Source of the DNA: Candidatus Micrarchaeota archaeon
GTDB taxonomy: Archaea; Micrarchaeota; Micrarchaeia; Micrarchaeales; Micrarchaeaceae
NCBI GenBank assembly: GCA_021827995.1
Contig: JAKATK010000014.1
Coordinates: forward strand, 10,888 to 34,887
Length of the DNA stretch: 24,000 nt
Direction: 5' to 3'
In this document: positions 9,895-21,444 of the stretch, piece after piece
Layout: every line of letters starts with the position of its first letter
How positions within the stretch are numbered: position 1 is the stretch's first letter
Position numbers and translations under genes: made by a program
The notes under the pieces: model-generated
What the model was told of the DNA's origin: nothing
What the model saw: the letters and a program-made list of their open reading frames with translations, nothing else
Database searches by the model: none

Positions 9895-9992
9895 CGAGCA
9901 CCACCGCAAGGGGCATGGTTGACATGTAGGTGAACGACTAAAGTATTTAGACCTCTCGCACGCATTACGTTTTTATGTGTAGATTCAGTTCG

Positions 9993-10020
9993 GGGCCGCG
10001 CGGCGCGCCCTCCGCGGCCC
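9993..10020 (+). promoter_or_regulatory. GC-rich inverted repeat GGGCCGCG-N12-CGCGGCCC in the leader of the Toprim gene
   Basis: Perfect 8-bp arms read directly. It lies 11 nt upstream of ATG 10031 and about 20 nt downstream of the TATA-like TTTTTATG (9970-9977). Confidence 0.3.
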
Positions 10021-10030
10021 AGGTGGCAGC

Positions 10031-10414
10031 ATGCACGATGACAGCTATGGCATCAGGAAAAGGAAGCTCATAGAGGGCATTCTCGGTAGCTTCAGGGCCG
10101 GCTTCGTAGTCGTCGAGGGCAAGCATGACGTGGCTACGCTGGCCAGGCTCGGGGTCAGTGCCGTACGCTTGGGCGCCCTGCCAGGCAAGGTCGATGCCAT
10201 CAGGGCAGCAGCTCCGAAATCCACGTTCTATATAGTGATGGACATGGACAGGGGCGGGGCCGACAAGGAGGGCAGGGCAATAAGCTTCCTAACGAGCGTA
10301 GACCAGGCAATAAAGTACGACACCGGAATGGGCCGCAGGTTCCTAAAGGCCCTCGGGATAACATCGGTCGAGCAGGCTTACAAAAGGGTCGAGGAGTTGC
10401 TCGGCACGCAGTAG
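10031..10414 (+). CDS. Small Toprim-domain protein (UPF0292 / RNase M5-like, COG1658-type)
   Basis: 127 aa. Toprim glutamate in VVVEGKHDVATLARLG and the DxD motif in YIVMDMDRGGADKEGR. Confidence 0.7.
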   Translation: MHDDSYGIRKRKLIEGILGSFRAGFVVVEGKHDVATLARLGVSAVRLGALPGKVDAIRAAAPKSTFYIVMDMDRGGADKEGRAISFLTSVDQAIKYDTGMGRRFLKALGITSVEQAYKRVEELLGTQ

Positions 10415-10634
10415 CTGGTCGTAGTTCTCGCCGCTTACCTGCATGTGTCCACCGTTTGCCGCATCTGCGCTGAGTTGCGCGAGAAGTGGTCGAGGGGCGC
10501 TTCCAGCGCGGTCAGGCGCCGGCGCTATATCTATAAACCTTGCCGTACAATACACTACGAGCAAGTAGGGATGGAAAGAATTCATTCGCTTTTCCTCCTG
10601 TGAACGGTATAGCAATAAAAGAAACGGTGTTAGA

Positions 10635-11969
10635 TTGAAGTCTTTTTCAGAGATGTCATTAAAGCCAGAGCTAGCAGAGGCCATAGGCAGGGTCGGGTTC
10701 ACCGCAGCAACTGAGGTGCAGGAGCGTTCCATACCCTCGATACTCCTGGGCAGGGACGTGATAGTCAGGGCCAAGACCGGTACCGGCAAGACCGCGGCGT
10801 TCATAATCCCTATAATGCAGCGCATAACGCACTCGGGTTCAGTGAGCGCAATAATCATAGTGCCCACCAGGGAGCTGGCGCTGCAGGTGGCCGAGTTCTC
10901 CCGCAAGCTGGGCGAGCACATGCGCCTACGCACCACCACGGTCTACGGCGGCGCGTCGATAAACGTGCAGACGAGCGAGCTGGAGCGCGGCACCGACATA
11001 GTCGTCGGCACGCCAGGCAGGATAATAGACCTACTGGACCGCGGCGTACTGAGGCTCGATTCCGTGAAGTTCGTGGTGCTGGACGAGGCGGACCGCATGC
11101 TCGACATGGGCTTCATAGAGGACATAGACTACATACTCTACAAGACGCCGATGAAGAGGCAGACGATGCTCTTCTCGGCCACGATGCCGCAGGAGATAGT
11201 CAAGATAGCAAAGCGACACATGGACCAGGGCGTCGAGACTATACTGGTGGGCGAGGACGACGAGCTCGTGGTCTCGACGATCTCGCACAGCTGCGCATTC
11301 GCCAACGGCAACGCCAAGTTCGCCTCGCTGCTCTGGTACATCGACAAGTTCAAGCCCAAGAAGTGCATAGTATTCTCGCGCACGCAGCGCTGGGCCGAGC
11401 TGATACACGACGTTCTAAGGAACAACGGCTACAACGCCGTGCTGCTGCACGGCGGCCTGACGCAAGCGGTGCGGGAGAGGTCCCTGAGCCACTTCAGGCA
11501 TGCCGGCGAGATACTCGTTGCCACTAACATAGCATCGAGGGGTCTCGATATAAACGACGTCACCGACATAGTTAACTTCGATACGCCTGAGACCTCTTAC
11601 GACTACATCCACAGGGTGGGCAGGTCCGCTAGGATGGGCAAGGAGGGCAGGGCGTTCACGATCTTCCGCTTCGACGAAAAGTGGATCAAGGATGACATAG
11701 AGTACGGCGCTAACATAAAGTTCGAGGAGCTCAGGCCAGAGCTCAGCAAGTACCCGAACGTAAGGCCACCAGAGCGCGCCAGGGAGCCGTTCGGTGGTCG
11801 CGGCGGTCCTGGCGGCCAGAGATGGCACAGGGGCAACCAGCAGTACGGCCGCGGGGAGCATCGCGATTACCGTGGGGGAAGGTTCCACCGCGGCGGCCAG
11901 CAGCACGGTCATCAGGGGCAGCACGGTCACCAGCAGTACCACAGACCGCAGGCGCAGGCCCAGGCCTAG
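10635..11969 (+). CDS. DEAD-box ATP-dependent RNA helicase with RGG/QH-rich C-terminal tail
   Basis: Q-motif (F...GFTAATEVQ), AKTGTGKT, PTRELA, TPGR, DEAD, SAT, ARGLD, HRVGRSAR. The TTG 10635 start retains the conserved Q-motif Phe; ATG 10653 is the alternative. Confidence 0.9.
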   Translation: MKSFSEMSLKPELAEAIGRVGFTAATEVQERSIPSILLGRDVIVRAKTGTGKTAAFIIPIMQRITHSGSVSAIIIVPTRELALQVAEFSRKLGEHMRLRTTTVYGGASINVQTSELERGTDIVVGTPGRIIDLLDRGVLRLDSVKFVVLDEADRMLDMGFIEDIDYILYKTPMKRQTMLFSATMPQEIVKIAKRHMDQGVETILVGEDDELVVSTISHSCAFANGNAKFASLLWYIDKFKPKKCIVFSRTQRWAELIHDVLRNNGYNAVLLHGGLTQAVRERSLSHFRHAGEILVATNIASRGLDINDVTDIVNFDTPETSYDYIHRVGRSARMGKEGRAFTIFRFDEKWIKDDIEYGANIKFEELRPELSKYPNVRPPERAREPFGGRGGPGGQRWHRGNQQYGRGEHRDYRGGRFHRGGQQHGHQGQHGHQQYHRPQAQAQA

Positions 11970-11971
11970 AG

Positions 11972-13930
11972 TCAGAGGCCCTTCTCGATCGCGTCCATAA
12001 TCTCGTGGGCTAGGAGCTCCTTCGTGCCGTCTACAAGCTTGGACGAGCCATCACGCATCAGTATGTGGGCGCGGTGCCTCGCCTCGGTGACCTGTGAGGA
12101 GTCGTTCAGCACCATGAGGCCGGCGCCGAGCTCCTTCATCCTGTGCCGGCCTGCTTCTATCATCCCCTTGTCGCTCATCATGTACTCCAGCTTGAAGCCG
12201 GCTATGAACAACTTCGGGAACTCTCTCGCTACCCTCTCTATGATCTTCGGAGTTGGCGTGAGCGACAGGTTCCACTTCCCGGTTGACTTTAGCTTGGTAT
12301 GCAGCTTGCTCTCAGGTTCGAAGTCCAGGACCGCGGCCGCGAATATTGCGGCATCGTATGGGCCAGACCTTAACTCCGAGAGGGTAGCGTCCAGCATCTC
12401 CTCAACCGTATTTGCCGCTATAGATCCCACGTACATCGGAACTGGCACCCTGGCTGGCCCAGTTATTACCTTGATCTCGCAGCCGCGCCTGAAGGCCTCC
12501 CTCGCTATGCTCGCGCCAAGCGCCCCGCTCGAGCTGTTCGATATGTACCTGACAGCGTCAAGGTAGTACCTGGTGGGCCCGGAGAGCAGCAGGATCCTCC
12601 TGCCTCTCAGCCTGCCTACGGCCAACTTCCTGTGCACGCTGTCCGAAACCTCGCGTATGCCAGGTATCTTGGCGATGCCCTCATCGATCCTTGGCGCTAT
12701 CACCATCGCGCCGCGCTTCCGCAGCTCCGCCAGGCTCTCCTTAAGCAGCGGATTGTCGTACAGCTTCATGTTCATGGCCGGCACTACTATCAGCTTGTCA
12801 TTGGGGTTGGCCGCGCACAGCGTCGTCACTGCGGTGTCCGCTATTCCAAGCGCAATCTTCCGTATAGTGTTCAGCGTCGCAGGGTAAACCAGTATTGCGT
12901 CGTAATCGGTGAGGTGCTCAGACATGCCGGTCAGGTGCGTGACCACGCCCCTGCCGGTCGCCCACTCCATGAGCGCTGGGCTGACGCCGAACTTCACAGC
13001 GCCATCGGTCATGAAGCACTCTACGTCGCAGCCGCTCCTACGCAGTTCCCTGGCGAGCCTGGGCGCCATTACGCTCGCGACGCTACCTGACATGCACAAC
13101 GCTACGCGCCTGCCAGCCAGCCAGTCGTTCTTCAGCGTCAGTTCGCCACCGGTCGGGTGCTTAGCGAACAGGCTACTGTAGTCCCCGAAGCCGTTAGTGC
13201 ATGGATTGCCTTCGGTGTAGAGAAGCCTGGACCTGCCAGCATCATCAGCGAGCGCGATTATTGTAGACGAGGTCATCTTCCAGTCGCCTGATCCGTGGAA
13301 GCATATCGAGGCGTGGCCCTTCTGTGATACGTGGTCCGCAGCGATAACCCCGATGCGTTTCAGCGCGTCGTCCAGCGACGCGCCTGGGATGCCAGCCGCG
13401 AGTCTCATGGCCCTCTCACTCCTGAGCGCAGAGCCCTTCCTGATCGCAGCGGTGCCAGCCTTGTAGACCGCGCCCTTCCTATGGACGAAGCTGGTTATGA
13501 CGTGGACACCGGCCTCAAGCTCTGTCTTCTGTACACGGCCTTCCTCGTAAAGCACGTGGAAAGCGGAGCGCTTGTCTGCGACCACGAAGTTGCCGCGCTT
13601 ATAGCCCATAGTGACCTCCTTCACAAGATAGTCGACAGCTGTCTTGGCGTCGTCGAACATGTTGAGCAGGTCGAGCATGAGAAGGCCGCGGCTGCGCCTG
13701 AAGTCGGTATCGATACCGGTGTGCTGGTCAGTGACTGCTACGAACAGGCCGCTCTTGTTAGCACCGATCCAGGTGCCGCCGCTCCTCACGTCAATAGGCG
13801 CATAAATCTCGCGCGCGCCCTTTATCCTGCGCGGCGGGTACTCCAGCGTGTCCGAACGCTCGTACCTGTTGTGCATAGCGACTATCTGGAAGCCGTCGAT
13901 TACCCGGTAGAGCAGCACCAGAGTGCACAT
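11972..13930 (-). CDS. coaBC: Tri-domain fusion: N-terminal TANGO2/NRDE-family domain + phosphopantothenoylcysteine decarboxylase (CoaC) + phosphopantothenate-cysteine ligase (CoaB)
   Basis: Uninterrupted 652-aa ORF. Residues 1 to about 256 (nt 13163-13930) show MC start, AMHNRYE (cf. NRDE), GGTWIG, GLFVAVTD, RSRGLL, RGNFVVAD and TSSTIIALAD, collinear with human TANGO2. Residues about 272-435 (nt 12626-13117) are a flavoprotein fold with VALCMSGSVAS, SEHL and VVPAMN. Residues about 441-652 (nt 11975-12610) carry GPTRYYLDAVRYISNSSSG, AAAVLDF and KLHTKLKS, the CoaB signatures. Confidence 0.85.
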   Translation of the reverse strand: MCTLVLLYRVIDGFQIVAMHNRYERSDTLEYPPRRIKGAREIYAPIDVRSGGTWIGANKSGLFVAVTDQHTGIDTDFRRSRGLLMLDLLNMFDDAKTAVDYLVKEVTMGYKRGNFVVADKRSAFHVLYEEGRVQKTELEAGVHVITSFVHRKGAVYKAGTAAIRKGSALRSERAMRLAAGIPGASLDDALKRIGVIAADHVSQKGHASICFHGSGDWKMTSSTIIALADDAGRSRLLYTEGNPCTNGFGDYSSLFAKHPTGGELTLKNDWLAGRRVALCMSGSVASVMAPRLARELRRSGCDVECFMTDGAVKFGVSPALMEWATGRGVVTHLTGMSEHLTDYDAILVYPATLNTIRKIALGIADTAVTTLCAANPNDKLIVVPAMNMKLYDNPLLKESLAELRKRGAMVIAPRIDEGIAKIPGIREVSDSVHRKLAVGRLRGRRILLLSGPTRYYLDAVRYISNSSSGALGASIAREAFRRGCEIKVITGPARVPVPMYVGSIAANTVEEMLDATLSELRSGPYDAAIFAAAVLDFEPESKLHTKLKSTGKWNLSLTPTPKIIERVAREFPKLFIAGFKLEYMMSDKGMIEAGRHRMKELGAGLMVLNDSSQVTEARHRAHILMRDGSSKLVDGTKELLAHEIMDAIEKGL

Positions 13931-13960: not shown

Positions 13961-15889
13961 CTAGACAAAATTTAAGCTTGCGCCAGGCATGGAACCGTTG
14001 GGCGGGTATGCTCTAGTGCGTATCCAGTAGAACGTGACACTGCCACCGGAGCTTATGAATAAGCAGAGATACGATGGACCGATGTTAGGTATGTCATTTG
14101 AAGACGTAAGCTGGTTGCCGTAGTTATAATAACCATTGAGGTCTGTCTGGGACTGCCATGAGAGCGTGACTGTTATCGGGTAGCTGTAGGAACTGCCGGA
14201 TACCTGATTCGTGTTGCCGTTTGATATGGTTGGAAACTCTACCCACTGGTGCAGGCCGGAGGTAACGCCGTCAACCCATCCCCACCAACCGGAACAGCAG
14301 CCAGATGGCGTTTGCGTGTTCCAACCCAGCAGCTCGTCATGGCCATCGTATTGCGCCGTACCAGTATAGAAGTACGCGTCTGCCATCAGACCGGCGGGAG
14401 AGAGCCGGGTGGCGTAGTAGAAGAATATAGAGCCGCCGTTGCCAGTCAACGTTAAGCCGTTGTTGATGCTCTCGCCACCGCCATTGGCGCTGTAAGTCCA
14501 ACCTGACGGTACGGAAGAACCAGAGAAATCGGTGTAGACATTGAACACGTTTGCGCCGTTGTCGTACTGCGCGTATCTGGGACTTAGCTGCGGCGCCTCG
14601 CCTGCGATGGGCACGTCGAACTCCGTGCTTAACGGCTCGAACACCATGTATATCGTGTTTCCGGGCGCCGTCTGGGTTTCTCCGTTCGGCAGCTTTACCC
14701 AGAAGATCGCCTGCGACGACGATTGGTTGCTACACGCGGTCTCGGGGCAGCCCTCGAGCCACGAGGCCAGCGGCCCAGACGGGACGCCGTTCGTGAGCGA
14801 GGAGTAGAACCTTATGTTGCCCAGGTCGCCGCTCTCATAAGATGAATACGAAGAGGGGTTGAAAGTGATTTCCTGCTGGAACGTGCCTGATATCGTGCTG
14901 CCAGGATTGAGCGTTATCTGCACGTAAGGCGATGTCACTGTGAGCGTATACACGGCATTGCTCGTGGCACCGGTGAGCGCATTGGTGCCTGTCACCGTGA
15001 TCTGGTAACTGCCCGGCTGCGCCGACGCGGTGGTGTTTATCGATAGGATGCTGTTGCACGTAGGATCAGGCGTGCACGACAACGGGCTGAACGCCTTCGT
15101 TATAGTGGGCGGCGCGGTATCAGATAGCGTCACTACGTTGGCGTTGTTGGATATTGGTGTAGTAATCGTCACCAACGCGTTGGTCGACTGGCCTGCCGCG
15201 ATCGTGTTGCTGGTAGGGCTCACCGATACGGTGAAGCTGAACTGCCGCGCCGGTGGCGGTGCTGGCGGAGGCGAGGAAGATCCGGAACCTCCGCCGAAAT
15301 AGCCGCCGAACGATGCGCTGTTGGTACCCGCCTCCTTCGCCGTTATCGTAGCAACCTTCGAGTATGCCGTCGGGGCCGAGCACGGGCTCAGGCAGTAGCC
15401 CAGCCAGACGTAACCCGCGAACGGCGTCCCTATCGGAGCGTTCGCAGGTATCTGGCCGTACGCGAACTTGCTGGCGTTGAAGTCTGCGCCGACCGTTTGG
15501 CCCGGAAGTAGGTTGCCTATGAAGAGCGCCTTTGAAAGGTCGTTGGCCGTGAAGTTCTGCGGTACGCCCATACTGTTTAGCGGTTCGCCATCCGCGGCCA
15601 TGAACATAAAGGAATCGAAGTATTCCCTGCCCGTCGTCTGGCCGAATGTTATGCCTATACCGTTGGCGGTGTATACCAGGCTCTTGCAGACGAAGCCTGC
15701 TTGGGCGATGCAGGCCTGCGGTGCCAGGTTCGAGCCGTTGAAGACGCCGAGTTCGAAGAGCGCAGCTAGCACTACTGCTATGATCAGTATGGCCCATCCG
15801 TAGGTCATCAAGTACTCCATGGCTGACTGTGCTTTACTCCCGATCTTTTTGGCGATGGTACGCTGCGACTGCATGTGAATACTAACCAT
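13961..15889 (-). CDS. Large secreted/surface protein with archaeal class III (prepilin-type) signal peptide, beta-sandwich, DUF2341-like and lectin-like domains
   Basis: N-terminus ...KKIGSKA/QSAMEYLMTYGWAILIIAVVLAALF carries the Q-x-x-x-E-Y-L plus hydrophobic helix motif. It is followed by the Pro-rich linker GSGSSSPPPAPPPA, an S/T/N-rich beta-sandwich (GSYQITVTGT...YTLTVT), a DUF2341-like segment (GNIRFYSS...ASWLEGC...AIFWVKLPNG...IYMVF) and a W/G/Y-rich C-terminal lectin-like region. ATG 15874 (MQSQR...) is an alternative, possibly leaderless, start behind the TATA-like TTTAAATT at about 15897-15904. Confidence 0.75.
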   Translation of the reverse strand: MVSIHMQSQRTIAKKIGSKAQSAMEYLMTYGWAILIIAVVLAALFELGVFNGSNLAPQACIAQAGFVCKSLVYTANGIGITFGQTTGREYFDSFMFMAADGEPLNSMGVPQNFTANDLSKALFIGNLLPGQTVGADFNASKFAYGQIPANAPIGTPFAGYVWLGYCLSPCSAPTAYSKVATITAKEAGTNSASFGGYFGGGSGSSSPPPAPPPARQFSFTVSVSPTSNTIAAGQSTNALVTITTPISNNANVVTLSDTAPPTITKAFSPLSCTPDPTCNSILSINTTASAQPGSYQITVTGTNALTGATSNAVYTLTVTSPYVQITLNPGSTISGTFQQEITFNPSSYSSYESGDLGNIRFYSSLTNGVPSGPLASWLEGCPETACSNQSSSQAIFWVKLPNGETQTAPGNTIYMVFEPLSTEFDVPIAGEAPQLSPRYAQYDNGANVFNVYTDFSGSSVPSGWTYSANGGGESINNGLTLTGNGGSIFFYYATRLSPAGLMADAYFYTGTAQYDGHDELLGWNTQTPSGCCSGWWGWVDGVTSGLHQWVEFPTISNGNTNQVSGSSYSYPITVTLSWQSQTDLNGYYNYGNQLTSSNDIPNIGPSYLCLFISSGGSVTFYWIRTRAYPPNGSMPGASLNFV

Positions 15890-18209: not shown

Positions 18210-19196
18210 ATGGAGTATACAAAGAGCGAAGCCAAAGCTTGGGCCCGCGAAAAGCTCGTGGGGCAGTGGACCACAATGGTCACACCGTTCACTAAGGACG
18301 ACCGGCTGGACGAGGCCGGACTAAAGCGTAACGTAGAGCATGTGCTCTCGCTCGGCACCAAGGGTCTCGGCTTCTCGTGGAACATGGGCGAGTTCTGGAG
18401 CCTGACCCGCGAGGAGCGGCTAAGGCTCATGGACATCGTACCAGAACTGGTCAATGGCAGGGCGATGACAGCCTTCCAGGTTACGAGCACCTCGCTCAAC
18501 GAGGTGATCGAGCTCTCTGAAAGAGCCAGGCAGCGCGGGTTTGATTTCGTAATAGTCGCTGCACCGTTCATAATGACAAAGACAGAGGAGCAAGTCATTG
18601 ACTTCGTCAGGCGCGTCTCTGAGCGCACCGATATCGGCATAGCATTCTACAACTCCCCCCAGTTCGGCATAACAATTTCTGCAAAGGGTCTCTCGCGCAT
18701 TGCCGACATACCAAGCGTCATCGCGATAAAGGAGGCGAGCTTCAACACGCAGATATCGATAGACACGCACCTGCTGGCAGGAGGCAAGGCGGTAGTTAGC
18801 GTGCCTGACGAGGAGATATTCCTGTACGAGCAGTACTACGGCTTCCACCAGCAGGTCATGTTCGCCAACACCAGCGACTGGCGCTTTGACACGAAGAGCA
18901 GGCACGAGTACGTCAAGTTCATAGACGCAGCTACGACTGGCAACCAAGAGAAGGCACGTGATTTATACGAGAAGGTGAAGCCGATAAAGATGGTTTCTAG
19001 AAAATGGTGGTCGCAGACCGCGGCGAAGACTGGCGGCGCCCTGCCCGTGCAGATGGTGAAGTGCTGGGGCGAGCTGATGGGCATGGCAGGTGGTGCCGTG
19101 AGGCCGCCGGTGATACCGTTCTCAGAGGAAGACAGGGCCGCGCTCAAGGAAGACCTGGCAAGGCTCGGCCTCGTGGAACAATCGGTCATAGAATGA
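18210..19196 (+). CDS. DapA/NAL-family class I (Schiff-base) aldolase-type enzyme
   Basis: Family motifs MVTPF, SWNMGEFWSLTREER (GxxGE), FYNSP (catalytic Tyr) and IAIKEAS (Schiff-base Lys). ATG 18210 (MEYTKSE) is preferred; the track extension from 18090 is Arg/Cys/Ile-rich and covers the promoter region. Confidence 0.85.
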   Translation: MEYTKSEAKAWAREKLVGQWTTMVTPFTKDDRLDEAGLKRNVEHVLSLGTKGLGFSWNMGEFWSLTREERLRLMDIVPELVNGRAMTAFQVTSTSLNEVIELSERARQRGFDFVIVAAPFIMTKTEEQVIDFVRRVSERTDIGIAFYNSPQFGITISAKGLSRIADIPSVIAIKEASFNTQISIDTHLLAGGKAVVSVPDEEIFLYEQYYGFHQQVMFANTSDWRFDTKSRHEYVKFIDAATTGNQEKARDLYEKVKPIKMVSRKWWSQTAAKTGGALPVQMVKCWGELMGMAGGAVRPPVIPFSEEDRAALKEDLARLGLVEQSVIE

Positions 19197-20602
19197 TAGC
19201 TGACCTTAGGGGATACCTGGGCTATTTGTCTTCTAAGAGCAGGCTCGTTGAGGTGTCTGAAAGGGTCAGCACCGACCTGGAGATATCGGCCATGACAAGC
19301 ATAGCCGGCAAGGAATCCCCCCACCACAGCAAATCGCTACTATTCAAGAACGTTGAAGGCTACGATATGCCCGTGGCTACGAACCTGTTCGGTTCGGTCG
19401 ACACAATCAGCGAACTCTTCAGCGATGCGCGCATACCAGAATTGATCACCGGTATAATGCACCCGAAGGGAGGAGCGGGCAACATGCTGAGAGGCGCGAA
19501 GGTGCTCATAGACTCGATGCCGAAGGTAGCGGGCTTCAGCAGCAGGAACTATGACAGGTTAAGCAGCCTGGACGAGCTGCCTATAATAAAGGCATGGCCG
19601 AAAGATGCCGGCAGGTTCATAACCTTGCCGTTGGTGATAACCAAGGGCCAGGACGGCTCTACGAACGTCGGCATTTACCGCATGCAGGTCTTCGATGACA
19701 TGACCACAGGCATGCACTGGCAGGCGCAGAAGGGCGGCGCGATACATGCCCACGATGCGCGGCAGGCAGGCAAGACCATGCCAGTGTCTGTTACGATAGG
19801 CACGGACCCGTTCAACATGGTATCGGCTGCCACGCCGCTGCCGCAGGGCATAAACGAGTTCGCCTTCGCAGGAATGGCCAGGCGCTCCCGCACGCAGCTC
19901 GTCAAGAACGGTGACTACCCACCTGTGCCAGCGAACTCAGAGATAATCCTGTACGGCGAGGTCGACCCGTCGGAGAAGCGCGTCGAGGGGCCGTTCGGCG
20001 ACCACACCGGCTATTACTCTATACCGGAGCCTGCAAACGTGTTCCACATAAAGGAGATATACGCCAAGAAGAATGCCGTCTACGCCGCCAGCGTAGTCGG
20101 GCACCCGTGGCACGAGGACGCGTCGATAGGCCTGTTCATGATGGACTACCTAAAGCCAATGGTGAGCATGGTCAACGACAGCATAACCGACATCTACCTG
20201 CCGCCAGAGGGCCTGTTCACGCACGTCTGCTTCATAAAGGTCAACAAGAGGTTCCCGGGAGAGGCCAGGAAGGCGATGTTCACAGTGCTCGGTCTTGGCC
20301 AGCTCTCGTTCGTCAAGATGGTCGTCGCATTCGACGATGACATAGACATAAGGGATTACGGCAGCGTGCTGTGGGCCATGGCCAGCAGGGTCGAGCCTGG
20401 GCGTGACATACAGATAATAAATGGCGCGCCGACGGACACGCTCGATCACACGGCCAATATGCCCGCATATGGCTCGAAGGTGCTAATAGACGCAACCAAG
20501 AAGAGCGCCGGCGAGGGCTACGCCAGGGAGTGGCCCGACACCATAGCTATGACCAAGGAAGTGCTGGAATCTGCGGAGAGAAAATGGCGAAAGTCAAGAT
20601 AG
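19193..20602 (+). CDS. UbiD-family (prFMN-dependent) decarboxylase
   Basis: MIADLRGYLGYL..., ITLPLVITK, GIYRMQV and EGPFGDHTGYYS signatures. ATG 19193 overlaps the upstream TGA (ATGA). Confidence 0.9.
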   Translation: MIADLRGYLGYLSSKSRLVEVSERVSTDLEISAMTSIAGKESPHHSKSLLFKNVEGYDMPVATNLFGSVDTISELFSDARIPELITGIMHPKGGAGNMLRGAKVLIDSMPKVAGFSSRNYDRLSSLDELPIIKAWPKDAGRFITLPLVITKGQDGSTNVGIYRMQVFDDMTTGMHWQAQKGGAIHAHDARQAGKTMPVSVTIGTDPFNMVSAATPLPQGINEFAFAGMARRSRTQLVKNGDYPPVPANSEIILYGEVDPSEKRVEGPFGDHTGYYSIPEPANVFHIKEIYAKKNAVYAASVVGHPWHEDASIGLFMMDYLKPMVSMVNDSITDIYLPPEGLFTHVCFIKVNKRFPGEARKAMFTVLGLGQLSFVKMVVAFDDDIDIRDYGSVLWAMASRVEPGRDIQIINGAPTDTLDHTANMPAYGSKVLIDATKKSAGEGYAREWPDTIAMTKEVLESAERKWRKSR

Positions 20603-21444
20603 CCGCTGTGCTGGCCGGTCTGTTCAGGCCCTGGCTTATCGCGTACAACCTGTCGTTCGTCTACATAGGCGTGCTCTTCGCGCATGGCATAACGCTCTAC
20701 GCCTTCGCGCTCGTCACCATCGCATTCATGGCCGCACGGCTGTCCGCGCTGCTGATGAACAGGTACGTGGACCGCGAACTGGACCTGAGGAACCCGAAGA
20801 AGCGGCACAGCGATCCAAGCCTCGCCGTACCAAGGAACACGCTACTGTACGCGTTCGCGCTTTTATCCGCGCTGTTCGTTTTCTGCGCGTACCTTCTCAA
20901 CACGCTGGCGCTGCTCCTGTCGCCAATCGTTATTGCGCTCTTCATCATAGACCCGATGCTCAAAACCAGGACTAGCAGCAGGCACTTCAGCGTTGGCGCG
21001 ATAGAGAGCATATCGCCTCTAGCCGGTTACATAGGGATAACAGGCACGTTCCCGGCGGCGCTGCCGCTCTACCTCCTTGTCGTCGGCATGATCCTTGTCG
21101 GCGGTGGCTTCGACGCGCTCTACGCCGTAGTCCACGCAGACTTCGACAGGAGCAACGGCATCAAGACCTATGCAGTCAAGTATGGTGTCGACAAGGCGCT
21201 TCGCATATCGATGGTAAGCCACGTGATCGCGATCGCGTTCATTATACTGTTCGCCTTGTCGAGCGGTTCCTTCGCCATCCTGATCGGTTCTATCGGCGCC
21301 TCAGCGATACTGCTATCGGAGCATTCTGGCATCAAGGGTGCCAACGATGCGGATTTCATGAAGCGGTTCAATATCTACAACCCGGCATTGGCCGTCGTAA
21401 TACTGGCTTCTGTGTTCGCATGGTGGTTCATGACGCTCGCATGA
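20584..21444 (+). CDS. UbiA-family aromatic prenyltransferase (UbiD-associated subfamily)
   Basis: About 8-9 TM helices. First Asp-rich motif ARLSALLMNRYVDRELDLRNP (NxxxDxxxD), second in FDALYAVVHADFDRSNG. ATG 20584 lies 19 nt inside the UbiD gene. Confidence 0.85.
   Translation: MAKVKIAAVLAGLFRPWLIAYNLSFVYIGVLFAHGITLYAFALVTIAFMAARLSALLMNRYVDRELDLRNPKKRHSDPSLAVPRNTLLYAFALLSALFVFCAYLLNTLALLLSPIVIALFIIDPMLKTRTSSRHFSVGAIESISPLAGYIGITGTFPAALPLYLLVVGMILVGGGFDALYAVVHADFDRSNGIKTYAVKYGVDKALRISMVSHVIAIAFIILFALSSGSFAILIGSIGASAILLSEHSGIKGANDADFMKRFNIYNPALAVVILASVFAWWFMTLA

Follow-up and report, generated by a model that had tools for sequence, protein, structure and literature searches.

The 24,000-nucleotide (nt) stretch of Candidatus Micrarchaeota DNA analyzed here and referred to as the window (assembly GCA_021827995.1, contig JAKATK010000014.1) carries on its negative strand, at positions 11972 to 13930, a single uninterrupted open reading frame (ORF) of 652 amino acids, in which a domain of the TANGO2/NRDE family precedes the bifunctional coenzyme A (CoA) biosynthesis enzyme CoaBC. 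Within a frame that extends over 662 codons from stop to stop, no start codon precedes the ATG at position 13930, and Met1-Cys2 is therefore the earliest N terminus possible. In the 652-residue protein, Pfam matched residues 1 to 147 to TANGO2 (PF05742; 41.4 bits against a cut-off of 22.6, and 43.7 bits in a whole-genome scan), residues 275 to 415 to Flavoprotein (PF02441) and residues 441 to 614 to DFP (PF04127; E value of 1.1e-39). The NCBIfam equivalog model coaBC_dfp (TIGR00521) scored 268.7 bits against a cut-off of 219.7 and aligned its positions 2 to 391/392 with residues 272 to 648. Using these matches together with alignments and structural models, we divided the gene, all on the negative strand, into an N domain of TANGO2/NRDE fold belonging to what we call the NRY subfamily (residues 1 to 262; 13145 to 13930; Pfam, AlphaFold2 model, Foldseek and family profile), a flexible linker directly before the first CoaC strand (residues 263 to 271; 13118 to 13144; confidence of the full-length model and an alignment of 38 proteins), the phosphopantothenoylcysteine decarboxylase flavoprotein CoaC (residues 272 to 430; 12641 to 13117; PF02441, TIGR00521 and CoaBC alignment), a CoaC-CoaB connecting loop that forms part of a predicted docking surface for the N domain (residues 431 to 440; 12611 to 12640; co-folding), and the phosphopantothenate-cysteine ligase CoaB (residues 441 to 652 plus the stop codon; 11972 to 12610; PF04127, TIGR00521 and motif alignment). 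An earlier note, made from the letters alone, had already described this continuous frame and assigned both halves; all the motifs it quoted are present in the translation and both assignments were borne out. Collectively, these data show that the product is a genuine three-domain protein with the order NRDE/TANGO2-fold domain, CoaC, CoaB.

A trivial explanation would be that the two parts are really separate genes, joined in the ORF by a chimeric assembly or by an undetected frameshift. Two related genomes provide some grounds for it. In the Bathyarchaeia genome G228 (contig C8; L025 6760-6830), the NRY gene and coaBC are read in different frames as two ORFs with a 26-nt overlap at a GAAAAT run, which may reflect a true split, programmed frameshifting or a sequencing error in the homopolymer. 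In Bathyarchaeota B26-1 (G042), the fused gene is interrupted near the CoaB end, a 599-residue frame being followed by a 128-residue frame (L009 8001-9740; G042:C42:10593-11713), by either a frameshift or an assembly error. However, the junction itself, at about 13108 to 13165 of the window, is spanned by Logan contigs that derive from metagenomes of mine drainage and tailings in three studies, the probable source samples not being among them, and these contigs differ from it by substitutions only, with zero indels. Moreover, a search with the CoaBC half recovered 37 clusters (at 90% identity) containing all three Pfam domains, to which a search with the N domain added 3, giving about 40 clusters in which the same continuous protein is encoded, in assemblies from NCBI, JGI, ENA and Logan and on contigs as long as 292 kb; its linker, as described below, retains invariant and nearly invariant residues. 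The idea of a chimeric or frameshifted ORF is thus effectively refuted.

By sequence as well as by fold, the N domain is a true member of the TANGO2/NRDE family. An AlphaFold2 (AF2) model of residues 1 to 262, based on an alignment of 98 sequences, reached a mean predicted local distance difference test score (pLDDT) of 95.6 and a predicted template modeling score (pTM) of 0.93. Its best solved matches in Foldseek were human TANGO2 (9bwa and 8sv7; E values of 2.5e-13 to 1e-12) and CV2077 (3gvz), a bacterial NRDE protein, with template modeling scores of 0.62 to 0.74 against TANGO2-type structures of the alpha-beta-beta-alpha, N-terminal nucleophile (Ntn)-type fold. In agreement with this, the 98-sequence family profile matched human TANGO2 (8sv7) with an E value of 1e-25 over profile positions 12 to 216. 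It superseded a profile of ten sequences, in which TANGO2 from the PDB was marginal (E value of 0.006) and two unrelated lipolytic enzymes scored equally. With human TANGO2, CV2077 and PF05742 (formerly DUF833) in general, the N domain shares the Ntn-type fold, the Met-Cys start, the Asn-Arg pair, the GGTW motif and a length of about 260 residues. Its motifs comprise Met1-Cys2, N21-R22-Y23-E24, GGTW (51 to 54), TDQH (67 to 70), RSRG (79 to 82), DH (199 and 200), C210-x-H212, SST (221 to 223) and C244. A Cys residue directly follows the initiator Met in 97 of the 98 family rows, residues R22, S80, R81 and G82 are invariant or nearly so, and a polar pocket formed by N21, R22, D47, N58, S80, R81, N114, D199, H200, H212, S221 and S222 is almost strictly conserved. 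The identity of 40 to 54% among the N domains of the first ten fused proteins is comparable to that of CoaB and indicates that the N domain is under purifying selection.

Nevertheless, the domain departs from the family pattern at telling positions. The putative Ntn active site of human TANGO2 consists of C2, R26, D27, N75, N157 and K166 (PMC13044924 and PMC12359130). In our alignment, human C2, N25, R26 and R88 correspond to C2, N21, R22 and R81, the human R88-G89 pair being kept as Arg-Gly, while D27, R32, N75 and N157 are replaced by Y23, T28, D68 and S147, respectively; overall identity to the human protein is about 17%. Hence C2 and R22 are retained from the residue set of Cys-Ntn hydrolases, and the partners equivalent to D27, N75 and N157 are replaced. 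The column of human N157 holds Ser in this protein and Asn in most fused forms from TACK archaea. In place of the eponymous NRDE motif, the protein has NRYE, with the Tyr invariant in 38 fused proteins and present also in their stand-alone sisters, whereas 88 of the 98 family rows have Asp or Glu in this column. Two conserved arginines are lost from the same clade as well, one by the R32-to-T28 change and the other, which follows N75 in the human protein, by a change to Q69. This pattern marks off a diverged subfamily without excluding family membership, and from the alignment we define NRY as the subfamily that keeps Cys, Asn and Arg, carries an invariant Tyr for Asp and lacks both arginines. 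The next-best structural matches (E values of 1e-11 to 1e-8) were acyl-CoA:isopenicillin N acyltransferase (2x1d, C45) and the bile-salt hydrolases/penicillin V acylases. The isopenicillin N acyltransferase/cholylglycine hydrolase enzymes are Cys-Ntn proteins that cleave amides or transfer acyl groups on them, the acyltransferase using acyl-CoA, but unlike the N domain they have retained the Asp and Asn that partner the nucleophile. Isopenicillin N acyltransferase matures by self-cleavage, in contrast to the N domain, where Cys2 follows the initiator Met. At the sequence level the NCBIfam match to C45 was weak (E value of 9.7e-4), and there was no match to such a family above cut-off. As a separate observation, D199-H200, C210-x-H212 and C244 (window positions of about 13197 to 13336) are nearly invariant in prokaryotic NRDE proteins and may constitute a metal or redox site; human TANGO2, compared at two of these columns only, has Cys at C210 and Arg at H212.

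The CoaBC half has the motifs of the enzyme. In CoaC, the G-S-V-A loop for flavin mononucleotide, His339 (within EHL) and PAMN (384 to 387) align with plain archaeal and bacterial CoaBC proteins. The CoaC clamp is of the short archaeal type, EGxAK, without Cys, which is no defect, since other archaeal CoaBC proteins share it. The motifs of CoaB include GPTRYYLDAVRYISNSSSG, AAAVLDF and K546-x2-S549, and its nucleotide/phosphopantothenate loop I463-S-N-S-S-S-G469 (ISNxSSG) and K546 align with their bacterial and archaeal counterparts. Judged by these motifs, both CoaC and CoaB are complete and intact. Compared with plain CoaBC/Dfp (TIGR00521; Mycobacterium smegmatis 6TGV, PMC7794376), the fused protein has the same two enzymes in the usual order with all motifs, and differs in its additional 262-residue N-terminal domain and linker, in the short Cys-less clamp, and in belonging to a distinct clade. 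The linker consensus of the fused proteins is E-x3-KS-x-KL-x-G-x-R, and across 38 of them E263 is invariant and L271 nearly so. In all seven fusion genomes checked (G000, G003, G041, G042, G043, G047 and G048), the fused gene was the only full CoaBC gene.

Named hosts of the fusion are Bathyarchaeia/Bathyarchaeota, Thermoprotei, a metagenome-assembled genome labelled Nitrososphaerales, and a mine-drainage genus of Candidatus Micrarchaeota, and identity among the fused forms falls to 44% for the CoaBC half and to about 40% for the N domain. One bathyarchaeial orthologue is GenBank RLF20027.1. Public annotation of these proteins gives only "bifunctional ... CoaBC". We found no description of an NRDE/TANGO2-CoaBC fusion in open-access papers and bioRxiv, while automated databases already hold the domain calls; targeted reading of two crystal-structure papers, the acyl-CoA paper, a 2026 cross-species paper and 2026 TANGO2 conference abstracts turned up none either. 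Of nine long NRDE-containing proteins found, eight were CoaBC fusions. Other NRDE fusions (P0163, P0012 and P0061) join the domain to a calcineurin-like metallophosphoesterase or, in Planctomycetes, to a glycoside hydrolase family 2 (GH2) galactose-binding-like domain. In every multidomain architecture with a reliable start, whether with CoaBC, the GH2-N-like domain or the metallophosphoesterase, the NRDE domain begins at residue 1. The claim that N-terminal placement matters thus stood, but the stronger version of it, that no other order would keep Cys2 free, went too far, because an internal Cys becomes exposed in related Ntn enzymes through self-cleavage (PMC13044924). Besides, Cys2 is buried in the fold, and N-terminal placement would be needed even without catalysis. 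Independently, in a related CoaBC clade (P0202-P0207; 39 to 43% identity to the CoaBC half described here), a class II aldolase/adducin domain (PF00596; residues 437 to 578 of P0203) is appended at the C terminus, which constitutes a second undescribed CoaBC fusion.

In a tree of the CoaBC half, all fused forms and nine seemingly plain entries constituted one clade with Shimodaira-Hasegawa-like approximate likelihood ratio test (SH-aLRT) support of 99 to 100; the nine entries turned out to be N-terminally truncated calls or split forms that begin in the linker or within the N domain. Together with the invariant E263, this single clade points to one fusion event. The N-domain tree was less simple. 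The NRY subfamily formed a clade (100/99), within which stand-alone NRY proteins of Bathyarchaeia and Baldrarchaeota nested among the fused ones, and an approximately unbiased (AU) test rejected a single clade of fused N domains (p 1.7e-5). A history of one fusion without fission was therefore discarded, and the simplest reading of the two trees would be that in some lineages the CoaBC half was lost and the N half survived as a gene of its own. The Micrarchaeota genes fall with both halves within an otherwise TACK clade. In a search of 41 genomes at the order level, a true CoaBC was found only in this genome and in G003 of the same genus, both times fused, and not in the other 39. The fusion probably originated in TACK-type archaea and, since these 39 relatives lack CoaBC, was probably acquired later by the mine-drainage genus of Micrarchaeota through horizontal transfer. 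A third genome of this genus (L005 = G001:C16:10142-13273, at about 1513-1632) contains only the first ~40 codons of the fused gene, with stops; the remnant directly adjoins the malic-enzyme gene, which reveals a deletion of the equivalent of window positions 9945 to 13810.

To obtain a view of the domain arrangement, we modeled the protein both as a continuous chain and in two pieces. The full-length AF2 monomer had confident domains (mean pLDDT of 89; pTM of 0.64) joined by a linker with pLDDT below 50 at residues 257 to 263, so that the N domain appears to be tethered rather than rigidly packed, at least in the monomer. When residues 1 to 262 and 268 to 652 were co-folded, the complex scored 0.78 compared with 0.18 for the best control, with contact agreement between runs of at least 79% and partner pLDDT of at least 88. 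In the benchmark, this score was attained by 58 of the 80 solved complexes and by 2 of the 110 mismatched pairs, both counts being approximate here because we supplied our own alignments. On the N side, the predicted contacts fall at residues 29-51, 76-91 and 108-109 (including 29, 48, 51 and 78-80) and flank the positions aligned with human R32, K56 and R88. On the CoaBC side they fall at 344, 376-378, 405-407, the loop 436-445 (436, 438-440 and 442-445), 524 and 526. The co-fold thus supports, without proving it, docking of the N domain on the CoaC-CoaB hinge. In M. smegmatis CoaBC, the loop equivalent to residues 431 to 440 tightly contacts both domains (PMC7794376).

The source genome comprises 1.26 Mb in 22 contigs and is 88% complete, compared with 0.6 to 1.1 Mb in its relatives, and its CoA pathway shows gaps. 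Both Micrarchaeota fusion genomes encode a bacterial-type CoaD (TIGR01510; 167 to 180 bits against a cut-off of 103), not the archaeal phosphopantetheine adenylyltransferase, at L045 1028-1804 (G000:C13) and L007 7308-7799 (G003). In G003, coaD lies divergently adjacent to the fused gene, whose 3' end is overlapped by an acyl-CoA dehydrogenase gene (L007 9937-11196). Phosphopantothenate synthetase (PPS), PanC, type III pantothenate kinase (PanK), archaeal dephospho-CoA kinase and CoaE were not found in either Micrarchaeota fusion genome (88% and 96% complete). The archaeal dephospho-CoA kinase was present in the four TACK fusion genomes searched. Type III PanK, PanC and PPS were not found in the five fusion genomes searched, in which pantoate kinase and type I/II PanK were not looked for. 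This raised the possibility that the N domain replaces PPS, and we rejected it because the absence of PPS (PF02006) is not specific to genomes with NRY genes: PPS was not found in 7/7 fusion genomes, nor in 143/201 sampled Bathyarchaeia, and above cut-off it was present in 57/201 Bathyarchaeia, namely in 4/24 of the NRY-bearing ones versus 53/177 of the others, without specific anticorrelation. In G041, PF01467 genes seemed to adjoin the fused gene, but the coordinates coincided by chance on different contigs (C1 and C3), and this adjacency was likewise dismissed.

The earlier note had argued from the fusion that the ancestral NRDE/TANGO2 activity acts on a metabolite of the CoA pathway, for example by hydrolyzing or salvaging an amide that contains pantetheine or cysteine. 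The functional link to CoA biosynthesis is strengthened by our results, because the fusion has a single ancient origin, recurs in about 40 clusters, supplies the sole CoaBC in 7/7 genomes and passes the co-folding controls, and we consider it likely that the N domain is functionally coupled to CoA synthesis. Extension to the ancestral activity of the family is an extrapolation, however, as the fusion is confined to one diverged archaeal subfamily. As the best overall explanation, to which we assign a probability of roughly one half, we propose that the N domain is an accessory module of CoA synthesis mounted on CoaBC. The fused protein serves as the sole CoaBC of the organism, and the N domain would be held on its flexible linker and dock at the CoaC-CoaB hinge. 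The ligand of the Cys2 pocket would be a metabolite derived from pantothenate that carries a single phosphate, for instance 4'-phosphopantetheine, phosphopantothenoylcysteine or an analogue that was made in error or damaged. In human TANGO2, R32, K56 and R88 form an anion site, and docking places the CoA diphosphate there and the pantetheine amide at Cys2 (PMC12359130). The bond that CoaB forms is of this amide type (pantothenoyl-aminothiol), and the loss of two arginines from the NRY subfamily would fit a ligand with fewer phosphates than CoA. In the version that we prefer, the N domain would cleave an amide or thioester of the bound metabolite, and 4'-phosphopantothenate, or a clean product, would be returned to or released from CoaBC, which would amount to salvage or proofreading. 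That Cys2 and its polar pocket are conserved almost without exception argues for catalysis, and a Cys-Ntn hydrolase has also been suggested from the crystal structure of TANGO2 (PMC13044924). We put this specifically catalytic version forward tentatively, as something less than an even bet.

Such a step would be comparable to the work of the N-terminal Cys domains of class II amidotransferases. In these Ntn-type enzymes (PurF, GlmS and AsnB), a Cys-nucleophile hydrolase lies upstream of a synthetase and hands it a small product. The likeness would be one of architecture only, as they belong to a different Ntn family.

Several observations weigh against the proposed catalytic module. To our knowledge, no TANGO2/NRDE protein has been shown to act as an enzyme. 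Throughout the clade, Tyr takes the place of the Asp (human D27) with which Cys-Ntn hydrolases position the N-terminal amine, and in this protein N75 is Asp and the N157 column is Ser. Were a hydrolase to run the CoaB reaction backwards, futile cycling would result unless its specificity were for damaged or wrong products. The monomer model yields no fixed domain arrangement, and conservation of the predicted interface lies below the domain means (0.51 versus 0.60 in the N domain, 0.58 versus 0.70 in CoaBC), random residue sets being equal or better in 96 to 98% of draws, although this comparison set surface residues against all residues and is for that reason uninformative. Finally, the domain is mostly found on its own. 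Among 201 sampled Bathyarchaeia genomes, 24 had a strong NRY match, of which 22 were stand-alone, 1 was fused and 1 was adjacent to coaBC, and where the NRY gene stands alone, the genome has a plain CoaBC from a different clade, which indicates that the domain can work without covalent linkage. At 24 stand-alone loci there was no CoaBC gene within about 6 kb, save for the adjacent or split form in G228, and 26 of the 27 stand-alone loci examined from the subfamily had no CoA genes nearby. The recurrent neighbors of stand-alone NRY genes encode CBS, 2-hydroxyacid dehydrogenase, OCD/mu-crystallin, inositol-phosphate synthase (MIPS), GPN GTPase, GNAT and radical SAM proteins, and reflect conserved synteny among related genomes, not a link to CoA.

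The isolation of these loci bears on a second explanation, that the N domain does something unconnected with CoA, such as hydrolyzing lipid amides or peptides, and that the fusion was an accident kept for the CoaC dodecamer scaffold or for co-expression. In the subfamily as in the wider family, most proteins are indeed encoded by stand-alone genes away from CoA genes, the GH2-N-like and metallophosphoesterase fusions show that the domain has other C-terminal partners, and the clade with the C-terminal aldolase domain suggests that CoaBC tolerates passengers. We nonetheless regard an unrelated function as unlikely. It sits poorly with a fusion of one origin retained as the sole CoaBC across at least four named lineages despite the divergence given above, with the predominance of CoaBC among the partners in long NRDE proteins, and with the controlled co-folding result. 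Furthermore, independent experiments tie TANGO2 to CoA: acyl-CoA is bound by the human protein in a manner dependent on the NRDE motif (PMC11867700), and TANGO2 deficiency models are rescued by vitamin B5 (PMC12782551 and references therein).

The main rival accepts the coupling to CoA and holds that the N domain is a noncatalytic sensor of CoA or acyl-CoA, from which feedback inhibition is passed to CoaBC via the CoaC-CoaB hinge. It would give these archaea control of the pathway at the CoaBC step, and the usual control point may be absent, given that type III PanK, PanC and PPS were not found in the five genomes mentioned above. Loss of the Asp and Asn partners, the former throughout the NRY clade and the latter in this protein, argues for a sensor, as does the report that purified human TANGO2 bound acyl-CoA and had no acyltransferase activity (PMC11867700). 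In mycobacteria, the dodecameric CoaBC is inhibited by both CoA and its thioesters and is a known control point (PMC7794376), and the predicted docking surface takes in the interdomain loop 436-445. On the other hand, the almost strict conservation of Cys2 and the dense polar pocket resembles an active site more than a lipid-binding groove, the clade is devoid of the arginines that docking assigns to the CoA diphosphate (PMC12359130), and stand-alone descendants persist where CoaBC is of a different clade. A sensor is possible, if on the unlikely side, and we retain the accessory catalytic module as the favored explanation.

A bolder form of that explanation would be that the NRY domain is an unrecognized Cys2-dependent amidase or thioesterase that recycles or proofreads pantothenoyl-amides on the CoaBC particle and that the same chemistry is the function of human TANGO2, a combination that we judge improbable. 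If it were true, pantetheine-directed chemistry of TANGO2 would explain the benefit of vitamin B5 in TANGO2 deficiency. This deficiency is a severe human metabolic disease in which the B5 benefit is unexplained and the role of the protein is disputed between heme trafficking, acyl-CoA binding and Ntn hydrolase activity. A long-kept fusion of single origin on the essential enzyme that builds the pantetheine arm of CoA provides evidence, independent of cell models, that the family handles molecules of the CoA pathway. The fusion has high value for generating hypotheses on TANGO2 function, and the prokaryotic fused protein is a tractable test object for which the partner enzyme and candidate ligands are known. 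For archaeal biology, it brings to light a separate clade of CoaBC and gaps in how these lineages are known to reach 4'-phosphopantothenate, and it makes a transfer of CoA-synthesis capacity from TACK to DPANN likely.

Regarding its surroundings, the fused gene is followed by a convergent DEAD-box helicase gene on the positive strand (10635 to 11969; Pfam DEAD and Helicase_C), which ends 2 nt from its stop codon. For transcripts, no RNA data set was listed as containing this stretch. Upstream, at a distance of 30 nt and on the same strand, lies an ORF of 642 amino acids (13961 to 15889) without a match in Pfam or NCBIfam. Its product carries a class III signal sequence like that of archaeal pilins (QSAMEYLMTYGWAILII), and its look-alikes include DUF2341 clusters typical of Micrarchaeota (atlas score of 0.92); it is probably a surface protein. 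We dismissed it as a partner or transporter, as it is not conserved beside the fusion in other genomes. Further along the window, at 19004 to 21444 on the positive strand, this small DPANN-type genome encodes a UbiD-family decarboxylase and a UbiA prenyltransferase in adjacent genes. The weak CoaC-like matches elsewhere in the genus, proteins of 194 to 201 amino acids, may be UbiX-type flavoproteins matching this UbiD.

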